Virus record (IMG/VR): IMGVR_UViG_2579778894_000011
Reading direction: 5' to 3' (one strand)
Source: a virus
Taxonomy: Duplodnaviria > Heunggongvirae > Uroviricota > Caudoviricetes
Length of the DNA: 4,270 bases
The notes under the pieces were generated by a model that was given only the letters and a program-made list of their open reading frames with translations, searched no databases and was not told where the DNA came from. Each line of letters begins with the position of its first letter. Position 1 is the stretch's first letter. Positions 1 to 4,270 of the stretch are shown here, in pieces. A program made the position numbers and the translations under genes.

Positions 1-25
1 GTCAGAACAAGTGCAAATGCTGTAT

Positions 26-214
26 TCATTGCCAGCATCCTTTTTGTATCGGACGTAAACGGGCCAGCATTGAAAGAATGCATATTTTATTTAATAACTC
101 CCGTTCGTGTTTTCTCTTGTTAATGGCATCTTCAGTAAATACAGGGTTACTGATAGTGACACCAATTTCAAAACAACCTTCAGACGTATTAACGTTTGGT
201 AATAACGTTTCCAT
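26..214 (-). CDS. dicB: Cell-division inhibitor DicB (62 aa); the track ORF 26..319 is an over-extension
   Basis: Minus-strand ORF. The internal ATG at 214..212 gives a 62-aa product, METLLPNVNTSEGCFEIGVTISNPVFTEDAINKRKHERELLNKICILSMLARLRPIQKGCWQ, matching my recollection of E. coli DicB in length and sequence. A GAGGA Shine-Dalgarno lies about 7 nt upstream on the minus strand. It sits downstream of DicF as in the known dicB operon. The 35 extra N-terminal residues in the track ORF have no ribosome-binding site. Confidence 0.8.
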   Translation of the reverse strand: METLLPNVNTSEGCFEIGVTISNPVFTEDAINKRKHERELLNKICILSMLARLRPIQKGCWQ

Positions 215-380
215 TATCGCGTCCTCAACAATGAATTTTGTGATGCGATGCCTGGTGCCTCCAGGTGACGTTAACCAGTTAACAATTAACGCCGGATACA
301 GAGAATCCACCCATAACACTGTTTTTGGTTTTAACTGTTCCGCGTGCGCTCAGCCGCATTCACCACATCACAAAATTCAC

Positions 381-402
381 TTTAAAAACGGCGGCAGAGC
401 AG
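381..402 (-). terminator. Possible leaky intrinsic terminator at the DicF 3' end (GC-rich segment followed by a T-run on the minus strand)
   Basis: Minus-strand RNA reads ...CUGCUCUGCCGCCG followed by UUUUUAAA (plus 381..388 = tttaaaaa). GGCGG and CCGCC segments within DicF can pair. dicB lies downstream, so any termination must be partial. Confidence 0.35.
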
Positions 403-441
403 TCACGGAGTAAAACTGATACCGCCAAACGTCACCAGAAA
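389..441 (-). ncRNA. dicF: DicF small regulatory RNA (about 53 nt, antisense regulator of ftsZ and other mRNAs)
   Basis: The reverse complement of 389..441 is tttctggtgacgtttggcggtatcagttttactccgtgactgctctgccgccg, which matches my recollection of E. coli DicF almost base for base. Its position between ydfC and dicB on the dicA strand is the known arrangement. The exact ends are processing-defined and cannot be fixed from sequence alone. Confidence 0.8.
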
Positions 442-466
442 ATTGATAACAGAGGGCGTTGCAGCG

Positions 467-503
467 GGGTTGTCACTTAAGCGTATGGTCAACCTGACAA
501 CCC
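467..503 (-). other. Stem-loop (9-bp perfect stem GGGTTGTCA / TGACAACCC, 19-nt loop) in the untranslated region just upstream of DicF in the operon transcript
   Basis: Perfect inverted repeat read directly: 467..475 gggttgtca and 495..503 tgacaaccc. There is no ORF on the operon strand here. Candidate RNA-processing or stability element. Confidence 0.4.
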
Positions 504-782
504 GGTGTCCTCAACGGGGGAAGGAATAACCCCGCCATACTTACCGCCGCGCCATTTCGCGGATTGCCACAACCGGAAGCGCACGGTCGACGAAAATTTA
601 ACGACAGGCTATCTATGAACCAGCTACCTCGCCGTGCGCTTTCGCGTTATGGTCTGACTTTTCAGGGAAATATCCTTTCAGTAAACTGTCAATGCCGGAT
701 GCTCACCCGTGTCCGGCGCACGCACTCCACCTCACCCGTGGAGAACTCCTTAATTACTAACCTTAGCTTTGTTGATTAGCTA

Positions 783-1001
783 CTAACGCGGGTATGTAAT
801 CATTCTGGCAATGCTTAATGCCGCTGCTTTTTCCAGATTGGTGATATCCTGCTCCAGAGCGGACAGATTTTCAGCCTGCTTAGCTCTGGCTTCATTGGCC
901 CATTTCAGATCCTGCGCTGCATTAATTTTCTGGTGCATCCACTCATAAAGTTCATCATCGGTATAGTCTGGCGCGATGATGACGGGTTCTCGTTTCTGCA
1001 T
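783..1001 (-). CDS. ydfC: Small prophage protein YdfC-like (72 aa), function unknown
   Basis: 72-aa minus-strand ORF with ATG at 1001..999 and a GAGGAA Shine-Dalgarno 5 nt upstream (plus 1007..1012 ttcctc). The position (third gene after dicA) and length match YdfC of the Qin dicB operon; identity is from recollection, not a search. Confidence 0.75.
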   Translation of the reverse strand: MQKREPVIIAPDYTDDELYEWMHQKINAAQDLKWANEARAKQAENLSALEQDITNLEKAAALSIARMITYPR

Positions 1002-1030
1002 ACTGATTCCTCGCGGTGCTGTTTCGCTTA

Positions 1031-1159
1031 TCAGCCGTTAGATTTTGCCGAACTGGAAAGCGCCTGTTTAAATTCGTTGAAGCTGAGAGCTTCTTCGCCT
1101 TCGGCAAGACCTTCGAAGTATTCTTCGTAAGCCTTTTCCATGATTGTGTCGAAATCCAT
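1031..1159 (-). CDS. ydfB: Small acidic prophage protein YdfB-like (42 aa), function unknown; absent from the supplied ORF track
   Basis: Hand translation of the minus strand gives MDFDTIMEKAYEEYFEGLAEGEEALSFNEFKQALSSSAKSNG, with ATG at 1159..1157 and stop TGA at 1033..1031. A GGTGA Shine-Dalgarno lies about 5 nt upstream. The start sits 1 nt after the ydfA stop (TGAtATG). Length and position match YdfB (42 aa). Confidence 0.7.
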   Translation of the reverse strand: MDFDTIMEKAYEEYFEGLAEGEEALSFNEFKQALSSSAKSNG

Positions 1160-1160
1160 A

Positions 1161-1316
1161 TCACTCACCTGAGTTTCTTTCCAGCCAGCGACGGGCACCA
1201 TTTTCGGTTTTAAACGTTTTGCTTTTGGTATACGTCATCGCGGTGAACGTACCGTCCTGGTTGGGAAACACGCCGTACACCAGAGATTCGTTGTTGCCAA
1301 GATCGATAGTATCCAT
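1161..1316 (-). CDS. ydfA: Small prophage protein YdfA-like (51 aa), function unknown; first gene of the dicB operon
   Basis: The internal ATG at 1316..1314 of track ORF 1161..1370 gives the 51-aa product MDTIDLGNNESLVYGVFPNQDGTFTAMTYTKSKTFKTENGARRWLERNSGE, with a GAGGT Shine-Dalgarno 5 nt upstream. The upstream ATG at 1370 has no ribosome-binding site. Length matches YdfA (51 aa). Confidence 0.7.
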   Translation of the reverse strand: MDTIDLGNNESLVYGVFPNQDGTFTAMTYTKSKTFKTENGARRWLERNSGE

Positions 1317-1393: not shown

Positions 1394-1422
1394 AGATTAG
1401 CCATGGCTAACATATAGGTCAA
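1394..1422 (-). promoter_or_regulatory. Candidate sigma70 promoter of the ydfA-ydfB-ydfC-dicF-dicB operon (PdicB-like): -35 TTGACC, 17-bp spacer, -10 TAATCT on the minus strand
   Basis: Minus-strand read: cactTTGACCtatatgttagccatggcTAATCTtatttg. The -35 is plus 1417..1422 (ggtcaa) and the -10 is plus 1394..1399 (agatta). It lies about 75 nt upstream of the ydfA start and overlaps the palindrome at 1397..1410. Confidence 0.45.
1397..1410. promoter_or_regulatory. Candidate DicA operator: palindrome TTAGC-CATG-GCTAA overlapping the spacer and -10 of the candidate dicB-operon promoter
   Basis: Perfect 5-bp inverted half-sites separated by 4 bp. It belongs to the same family as the two palindromes in the dicA-dicC intergenic region (1893..1906 and 1943..1956). 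Confidence 0.5.
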
Positions 1423-1432
1423 GTGATTTTGT

Positions 1433-1448
1433 ATGTTATGGCTAACAT
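1433..1448. promoter_or_regulatory. Second palindrome ATGTTA-TGGC-TAACAT just upstream of the candidate -35; possible auxiliary operator or other protein-binding site
   Basis: Perfect 6-bp inverted arms with a 4-bp spacer, read directly. It shares the TGGCTAA core with the 1397..1410 site but has different half-sites from the TTAGY family. Confidence 0.3.
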
Positions 1449-1460
1449 GATTGATGTGGT

Positions 1461-1491
1461 AAAAGATAACTCATTGATGATGTTATCTTTT
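1461..1491. other. Perfect 10-bp inverted repeat AAAAGATAAC-(11 nt)-GTTATCTTTT overlapping the dicA stop codon
   Basis: Arms at 1461..1470 and 1482..1491. Read on the plus strand it is followed by TTTTATTTG, so it is terminator-like against antisense transcription into dicA. On the minus strand it is not followed by a U-run. Confidence 0.35.
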
Positions 1492-1890
1492 ATTTGTCCG
1501 CTGACGGGCTTTTAGTAATTCTTCAAAGAGTTTATTGAAGTTTTTTACTCGAGCTCGCATTTCGGCGAGCTGGGTATCCTGTTCTGATTCTGGCAGTGCA
1601 TTAAACAGCTCAAGGAGCTCTAGTTCTTTGGGGGATAAGGCAACTGGCTTCTCAACAGGTGGTGTTGGTTGCTTGTCTTCATCGCCAAATAGAATCCATG
1701 TTGGTGAGCATTGCAATACTTTGCTGAGGGCAAAAAGGTTCTTCCCTGTAGGTTCACTATCATCCCGTTCCCATTGTGATACAGACACATGGGAGATTTT
1801 CAGGGCTTTAGCAAGAGACCTTTGGGTGTGTTTGAGGTTTTTCCGACGATACCTAATGCGTTCGCCGATAGTTAAATTTTTTGTTTCCAT
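1483..1890 (-). CDS. dicA: Prophage repressor DicA (CI/C2-like HTH_XRE repressor, 135 aa)
   Basis: 135-aa minus-strand ORF, METKNLTIGERIRYRRKNLKHTQRSLAKALKISHVSVSQWERDDSEPTGKNLF..., with an N-terminal helix-turn-helix (QRSLAKALKISHVSVSQWE). It matches my recollection of E. coli DicA and is divergent from a Cro-like gene. Confidence 0.9.
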   Translation of the reverse strand: METKNLTIGERIRYRRKNLKHTQRSLAKALKISHVSVSQWERDDSEPTGKNLFALSKVLQCSPTWILFGDEDKQPTPPVEKPVALSPKELELLELFNALPESEQDTQLAEMRARVKNFNKLFEELLKARQRTNKR

Positions 1891-1892
1891 AG

Positions 1893-1906
1893 TTAGCTAA
1901 TGCTAA
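1893..1906. promoter_or_regulatory. Candidate operator in the dicA-dicC intergenic region: TTAGC-TAAT-GCTAA
   Basis: Inverted 5-bp half-sites separated by 4 bp, located between the dicA start (1890) and the candidate dicC -35. Confidence 0.5.
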
Positions 1907-1912
1907 ATCGTA

Positions 1913-1941
1913 TTGACTATGTTTTTGTTAACATCTATTTT
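1913..1941 (+). promoter_or_regulatory. Candidate sigma70 promoter for dicC: -35 TTGACT (1913..1918), 17-bp spacer, -10 TATTTT (1936..1941)
   Basis: Good -35 match with canonical spacing, about 30 nt upstream of the dicC ATG. The predicted transcription start falls inside the palindrome at 1943..1956. Confidence 0.4.
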
Positions 1942-1942
1942 G

Positions 1943-1956
1943 TTAGTTATGACTAA
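1943..1956. promoter_or_regulatory. Candidate operator: TTAGT-TATG-ACTAA overlapping the predicted dicC transcription start
   Basis: Inverted 5-bp half-sites separated by 4 bp, same family as 1893..1906 and 1397..1410. Confidence 0.5.
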
Positions 1957-1973
1957 CAATAAAGGTGTTTTAA

Positions 1974-4118: not shown

Positions 4119-4180
4119 TGAGATTAAAGTTTATTAGTTCAGATATTGATTGGCTCTTTTGTGGAGTAGGGTAGAGTTAG

Positions 4181-4270
4181 GGAAGGTGCGAACAAGTCCC
4201 TGATATGAGATCATGTTTGTCATCTGGAGCCATGGAACAGGGTTCATCATGAGTCATCAACTTACCTTCG
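4181..4270 (+). mobile_element. IS5 left end (terminal inverted repeat GGAAGGTGCGAACAAG at 4181..4196), continuing beyond the window
   Basis: The sequence from 4181, ggaaggtgcgaacaagtccctgatatgagatcatgtttgtcatctggagccatggaacagggttcatcATGagtcatcaacttaccttcg, matches my recollection of the IS5 terminus and the start of its transposase. It is immediately preceded by TTAG (4177..4180), which fits the IS5 target preference (YTAR). Confidence 0.85.
4249..4270 (+). CDS. insH: IS5 transposase InsH, first 7 codons only (MSHQLTF...); truncated by the window edge
   Basis: ATG at 4249 followed by codons for SHQLTF, matching the N-terminus of the IS5 transposase as I recall it (MSHQLTFADSEF...). Confidence 0.8.

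Follow-up and report, generated by a model that had tools for sequence, protein, structure and literature searches.

A very probable, intact-looking copy of the small RNA gene dicF in a Qin-like lambdoid prophage of Escherichia coli

The stretch of DNA analyzed here (the window, 4,270 nt of the viral record IMGVR_UViG_2579778894_000011) almost certainly carries, on the minus strand at 389..441, a functional-looking copy of dicF, which by its sequence and by analogy with K-12 would encode the Hfq-dependent sRNA of the dicBF operon of a Qin-like lambdoid E. coli prophage. Read directly from the window, these 53 nt are TTTCTGGTGACGTTTGGCGGTATCAGTTTTACTCCGTGACTGCTCTGCCGCCG, exactly the bases that the initial annotation had quoted when it named the interval DicF. 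The U-run reported there is also present, as TTTTT at 388..384, and is followed by AAA at 383..381; the whole of 388..381 reads TTTTTAAA on the minus strand, and the interval 381..441 given in that annotation divides into the mature RNA (389..441) and the U-run with AAA (381..388). A covariance-model search, which had been proposed as a check, matched the Rfam DicF family RF00039 at 389..440(-) with 72.5 bits (E = 3.2e-15; gathering score, 48 bits). All 52 model positions (1-52) were aligned with 0 non-canonical pairs, and this was the sole Rfam 15 match at gathering thresholds when the whole window was scanned. The second proposed check, a comparison with E. coli K-12, gave 52/53 identical nucleotides by pairwise alignment to dicF of MG1655 (b1574, NC_000913.3 1649382..1649434), which is annotated as 'small regulatory RNA DicF' in the ydfC-dicB interval of the cryptic prophage Qin. 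As a sequence match this is much above chance, and the window holds no sequence evidence that counts against the identification. DicF nucleotides are numbered below so that nucleotide n is window position 442-n.

389..441, minus strand: mature DicF sRNA, 53 nt (Rfam RF00039 and identity to K-12)
441..427, minus strand: DicF 5' single-stranded seed, nt 1-15 (identical to K-12)
417..390, minus strand: DicF ftsZ-pairing region, nt 25-52 (ftsZ duplex)
426..420 with 396..390, minus strand: predicted hairpin stem 1, nt 16-22 with 46-52 (fold)
418..414 with 404..400, minus strand: predicted hairpin stem 2, nt 24-28 with 38-42 (fold)
384..388, minus strand: five-U run of the Rho-independent terminator, 3' end of the 53-nt form (read directly; role from PMC5069750 and PMC9438474)

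When the minus strand was aligned over 20..1005, DicF nt 1-52 were found to be unchanged across the window, K-12, and the E. coli genome FORC064, and the flanks of the gene, ∼130 nt upstream and ∼140 nt downstream, are likewise identical in all three. The predicted terminator hairpin has 7 + 5 bp and a minimum free energy of −16.6 kcal/mol, is followed by UUUUU, and is the same structure as that in the Rfam consensus line. Its energy relative to shuffled sequences gives a z of only −1.96, which is weak evidence by energy alone.

The gene neighborhood is that of Qin. The order dicC, dicA, ydfA, ydfB, ydfC, dicF, dicB matches K-12, with the start of ydfD running off the window, and the placement of dicF between ydfC and dicB in the initial annotation agrees with both RefSeq gene names and Pfam. 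The nearest complete genome, FORC064, is 99.93% identical over 4180 nt, has the same genes named by RefSeq, and differs from the window at three positions (389, 1454, and 3588).

26..214, minus strand: dicB, 62-aa cell division inhibitor (Pfam PF05358; annotated in FORC064)
783..1001, minus strand: ydfC, upstream of dicF (RefSeq annotation of FORC064 and K-12; alignment)
1031..1159, minus strand: ydfB, one of the first genes of the dicBF operon (annotation)
1161..1316, minus strand: ydfA, DUF1391, one of the first genes of the dicBF operon (Pfam and annotation)
1394..1448, minus strand: candidate dicBp region, with −35 TTGACC at 1422..1417, a 17-nt spacer, and −10 TAATCT at 1399..1394 (read by eye)
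1483..1890, minus strand: dicA, cI-like repressor of the dicBF operon (HTH_3; annotation)
1940..1959, minus strand: DicA operator Oc, TTGTTAGTCATAACTAACAA, 20 nt, exact copy (sequence match; PMC3441716)
1974..2204, plus strand: dicC, Cro-like regulator, divergent from dicA (Pfam P22_Cro; annotation)

The predicted DicB protein matches PF05358 with 127 bits over positions 1-62 of 62 and is identical to K-12 DicB at 55/62 residues, while DicA is identical to its K-12 counterpart at 134/135. The one DicA difference is at residue 43, where Asp replaces the Gly of K-12 (WERG to WERD, codon 1762..1764) just after the HTH recognition helix. G43D occurs in 14/18 DicA-bearing loci that we compared, FORC064 included; it is a common allele, and this rules it out as a lesion specific to the window. 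The DicA repression claimed in the initial annotation is further borne out by the exact copy of Oc, an operator whose sequence and in vivo DicA binding are established (PMC3441716). Operator-like 15- to 20-mers of the TTAGYYATGRCTAAC type lie on both sides of dicA, at 1397..1413, 1432..1448, 1892..1906, 1918..1934, and 1940..1959. The first two are 17-mers situated between dicA and ydfA, where they flank the candidate dicBp, and position 1454, one of the FORC064 differences, falls just outside the second. Three operators have been described between dicA and dicBp (PMC10448788). We infer the position of dicBp from the letters of the window; its candidate hexamers score below the 9/12 cut-off of our promoter scan and overlap one of the operator-like 17-mers. 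We also note a perfect 11-bp inverted repeat (TAAAAGATAAC / GTTATCTTTTA) at 1460..1492, with its arms 11 nt apart, which straddles the dicA stop codon and may terminate dicA transcription or be an additional regulatory element.

Beyond dicC the window carries YdaT-family, O-like, and DUF977 genes, and it is more complete on this side than Qin, which has ydfX and ydfW in K-12. At 4181..4270 the sequence becomes the end of an IS5 element (GGAAGGTGCGAAC..., running into the transposase start ATGAGTCATCAA). The insertion follows TTAG downstream of the DUF977 gene, and homology to FORC064 ends at 4180. The IS5 at the far end is one difference from K-12 Qin, the others being nt 53 of DicF (C in K-12 vs G in the window) and the 7/62 residues at which DicB differs; the ydfC and dicB neighbors, DicA, Oc, the hairpin, the U-run, and the ftsZ-pairing region are shared.

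The initial annotation described DicF and DicB as two independent cell-division inhibitors. This holds for their mechanisms, and not for their regulation, since both are made from one transcript that starts at dicBp (PMC10448788). Deletion of dicA raises dicBp activity 22-fold (PMC10448788), and filamentation upon loss of DicA, acting through DicF and DicB, is knowledge from K-12 (PMC10448788, PMC3441716). Because the region matches at a median of 2 places in the genomes that carry it, such filamentation could be masked by another prophage of the host with the same immunity.

For the transcription, processing, Hfq dependence, targets, and phenotype of the window's dicF we infer from the experiments in K-12. 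In that scheme, transcription from dicBp, downstream of dicA, would normally be shut off by DicA bound to its operators, and lifting of the repression would yield a ydfABC-dicF-dicB-ydfD transcript. The 3' end of the 53-nt DicF would arise at the intrinsic terminator made of the DicF hairpin and UUUUU, and RNase E would create the mature 5' end, as reported for K-12 (PMC5069750, PMC9438474, PMC10448788). Transcripts that read through would be cut by RNase III within long duplexes on either side to give a 190-nt and a 72-nt species. Both are documented as RNase III-dependent, the 72-nt form having an alternative 3' end (PMC5069750, PMC9438474) and the 190-nt precursor an upstream 5' end (PMC10448788). 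The expected 5' end of the 190-nt species falls at 578 (389 + 189) and the expected 3' end of the 72-nt species at 370 (441 − 71), and each of these positions is spanned by a predicted duplex, the upstream one in a hairpin that is near-identical to K-12 and the downstream one in a long stem of the dicF-dicB spacer. The predicted duplexes at 578 and 370 fit the processing map reported in the literature.

567..652, minus strand: predicted long hairpin of the ydfC-dicF spacer, arms 652..629 and 589..567 (fold)
361..389, minus strand: predicted 29-bp stem of the read-through transcript, 5' arm (fold)
251..360, minus strand: predicted multi-hairpin core of the dicF-dicB spacer (fold and distant homologues)
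221..250, minus strand: 3' arm of the 29-bp stem, including the dicB Shine-Dalgarno GAGGA at 226..222 (fold)

Mature DicF would then act on ftsZ, with nt 25-52 covering ftsZ −28..−1, Shine-Dalgarno included, so that FtsZ synthesis would be blocked and septation would not take place. The DicF 5' end would pair with xylR and pykA. DicB, translated from read-through transcripts, would inhibit division separately, at the protein level and via MinC.

The complementarity of the DicF 3' half to the ftsZ ribosome-binding region, a further check suggested at the outset, was computed with the K-12 leader rather than that of the source strain; this leader is ≥99% identical in 5389/5426 E. coli genomes. 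Between DicF nt 25-52 and ftsZ −28..−1 there are 21 pairs at −28.3 kcal/mol, an energy equaled by 6/2000 shuffles. Restricting the search to the 3' half gave a clearer outcome than the full-length RNA, for which the RNAduplex energy was matched by 61/500 shuffles and is uninformative. A GGC-repeat in K-12 ftsZ codons ∼14-30 (+40..+90) reaches −33 kcal/mol with the GCCGCC 3' strand of the hairpin, an energy below that of the ribosome-binding site, and this complementarity is probably a GC artifact. Since that repeat outscores the ribosome-binding site, energy scans cannot by themselves prove the target, and the DicF-ftsZ claim rests mainly on published genetics, in which pairing of the DicF 3' region with the ftsZ ribosome-binding site was proven by compensatory mutations (PMC5069750). 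The statement in the initial annotation that DicF inhibits ftsZ and other host mRNAs fits both the intact pairing region and the literature, where xylR, pykA, and manX are further targets, reached through the DicF 5' end (PMC5069750).

These additional targets raise the question of whether division arrest is what the RNA is chiefly for. The same molecule might have another main job, either in sugar metabolism and phage susceptibility together with DicB (through manX, xylR, and pykA, and through inhibition of ManYZ and FhuA-type receptors) or in EHEC virulence, with division arrest as a side effect of overexpression. We consider this a serious possibility, although a rather unlikely one. It is favored by the observations that ftsZ repression alone does not account for DicF toxicity (PMC5069750), that pchA is activated in EHEC (PMC9438474), and that DicB is reported to protect against phage infection (PMC6832061). 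The DicF 5' seed, nt 1-15, is identical to K-12 in the window, which also speaks for it. However, the regulation of ftsZ is experimentally direct and the region that would pair with it is intact here, and a different principal role would in any case not conflict with the identification of the gene as dicF.

The lone DicF difference is at nt 53 (window 389), which is G in the window vs C in K-12 and FORC064; the Rfam DicF consensus also carries C at this place. With a 40-nt query centered on G53, each 28-mer seed of which contained this nucleotide, we found the G in 949/5426 complete E. coli genomes (17%), in 914 of them as an exact match, and a 27-mer with G53 occurs in at least 120 IMG/VR contigs and in representatives of Shigella flexneri and Escherichia ruysiae as well. 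The 949 genomes and the IMG/VR contigs show that G53 is neither private to the window nor an artifact of sequencing. Most G53 copies also carry C at window 365. The window instead combines G53 with a flank of the FORC064/K-12 type, which is more typical of C53 copies, and none of the 5426 complete E. coli genomes matches its 131 nt around dicF perfectly, the best match having 1 mismatch. G53 itself is common as a natural allele; the flank haplotype that carries it here is slightly unusual. In the duplex with the ftsZ leader, nt 53 lies opposite A(−29), where the change from C to G neither adds nor removes a pair, which rules out an effect of G53 on this pairing. The terminator hairpin is slightly stabilized (−16.6 kcal/mol with G53 vs −15.9 with C53), and in the predicted fold of the read-through leader G53 pairs with C221.

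The departure of nt 53 from the Rfam consensus is also a point that can be cited for the locus being a silent or decayed relic, that is, a DicF sequence that gives no useful RNA on account of permanent repression, decay, or harm done by C53G to termination or Hfq binding. The IS5 end that interrupts the prophage at 4181 and, in FORC064, an internal stop in ydfD and a frameshifted integrase point in the same direction. Yet DicF nt 1-52, their flanks, dicA, Oc, the operator-like sites near the candidate dicBp, and dicB are all intact, and neither the frequency of G53 in complete genomes nor its small effect on the hairpin suggests damage. K-12 Qin is itself defective and nonetheless makes DicF in stationary phase (PMC10448788). 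Taken with these observations, the relic reading is very improbable, and we retain that of an intact dicF.

In the predicted fold of the read-through transcript, the dicF-dicB spacer closes into the 29-bp stem listed above, which spans 221..389 and encloses four small hairpins; the spacer as a whole folds more stably than shuffled sequences, with z = −4.8. At the base of the stem the DicF U-run and nt 53 pair with GAGGAC, which is the dicB Shine-Dalgarno plus one base, with a probability of ∼0.99, and the dicB AUG (214..212) is unpaired. An in silico replacement of G53 by C makes the fold 4.1 kcal/mol less stable and lowers the pairing probability of the Shine-Dalgarno to 0.36-0.96. Among 34 distinct close relatives, 99.2% of the cells of the stem alignment are paired and all of the changes are one-sided; we detected no compensatory pairs in these 34, where divergence is small, and shuffle controls were not exceeded. 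Two apparently compensatory pairs are seen in the stem of P7, in a register set by eye and outside the formal count. The support for the stem comes from thermodynamics (the z value above), wobble-compatible changes, and distant homologues. We found no description of a dicB leader stem or of Shine-Dalgarno occlusion in the literature searched, which did not cover Faubladier et al. 1990.

On the basis of this fold one may tentatively propose, as a model that we regard as doubtful, that a leader gated by RNase III and occluding the Shine-Dalgarno couples DicF termination to the translation of DicB or Kil and is tuned by nt 53. DicB would be translated only once RNase III opens the stem, the same cut would yield the 72-nt DicF, and the extra G-C pair provided by G53 would shift the balance from DicB toward DicF. 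If true, a structured leader of this kind would serve phage division inhibitors in general as a control module.

The spacer module recurs in other phages. Diverged copies of it, with 80-86% identity, precede kilR in Rac-SA53, kil in Stx phage 75/02, and terB in P7, and the kil leaders keep the arrangement of a terminator hairpin and a U-run that pairs just 5' of the Shine-Dalgarno or over it. The following copies give whole-model STnc100 matches below threshold.

1234..1423 of L128 (Rac-SA53): spacer-module copy
1205..1403 of L129: spacer-module copy
1201..1316 of L130: spacer-module copy

The spacer of the window itself (182..391, minus strand) aligns to the whole of the Rfam model RF02076 (STnc100) with 34.3 bits (E = 4e-6 to 2e-5). 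The gathering score is 47 bits, and we reject membership in this family and speak of a resemblance only. All of the spacer modules fall below that value, with scores of 33-44 bits, of which the copy upstream of kilR in Rac-SA53 has the highest at 43.8. STnc100/PasD sRNAs and the spacer share sequence blocks, including UGGUGAAU and CACCnGGAGGCACCnGGCA, and both occur in lambdoid prophages (PMC12370729; bioRxiv 10.64898/2026.05.13.724894). They differ in position, since canonical STnc100 lies downstream of stx2 or beside Fels-1-type genes, whereas the spacer lies in the early-left operon.

Upstream of kilR in Rac-SA53 there is also a DicF-like terminator hairpin (L128 1190..1244), whose score of 41.1 bits does not reach the DicF threshold. 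It resembles DicF in its place in the leftward early operon and in the series of a hairpin with a U-run, a structured spacer, and a small FtsZ-directed inhibitor, but its loop is without the ACUCCG anti-Shine-Dalgarno by which DicF pairs with the ftsZ Shine-Dalgarno. As judged from its sequence, it is not demonstrably DicF and is probably not an ftsZ regulator, and it may represent another sRNA built on this scaffold. In another IMG/VR record, IMGVR_UViG_2923286960_000003 (L081 656..1135), a full-scoring DicF is followed by matches to isrK and to the C4 antisense RNA rather than by dicB, so that the downstream cassette differs.

The dicF locus of the window is an ordinary, intact copy of a well-studied and already known sRNA. 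Work on DicF and DicB of Qin-like prophages goes back to the late 1980s, and the locus adds little beyond its correct annotation; its only item of some research value is the conserved dicF-dicB/kil leader together with the effect that nt 53 might have on DicB translation. The 131-nt dicF region occurs in 3973/5426 complete E. coli genomes, about three quarters, in up to 7 places each. The dicF-dicB module of further prophages of E. coli and Shigella and of the sequenced temperate phages PPompW, mEp460, Tritos, PhiR42_1, and HannyBb is 97-99% identical to that of the window.

Annotation of the gene is uneven across these copies. The Tritos record reads 'DicF antisense sRNA, inhibits ftsZ', the RefSeq records list no feature beneath the matches to the dicF region, and PhiR42_1 annotates neither dicF nor dicB and carries a hypothetical protein (L127 5184..5519) that is the counterpart of a plus-strand 111-aa ORF at 78..413 of the window, antisense to both DicF and dicB. 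That the region codes for protein on this other strand is extremely improbable despite the presence of the ORF and its annotation in PhiR42_1, which is probably most simply accounted for as an automatic call, given that on the minus strand Pfam DicB and Rfam DicF both match over their full lengths and that RefSeq, K-12, and Tritos annotate dicB or dicF there. Flagging dicF is useful in preventing misannotation because automatic annotation usually omits it, and one phage record annotates the antisense ORF.

Finally, near-identical copies (86-99%) of this E. coli prophage region appear in records assigned to unrelated hosts, namely the 'Collinsella sp.' MAG contig JAIIUG010000151.1 (L126), Aeromonas phage AP1 (MT713136.1, 249912..250152), and an Actinobacillus phage (PP818812.1), and their occurrence there suggests misbinning, contamination, or chimeric assembly.
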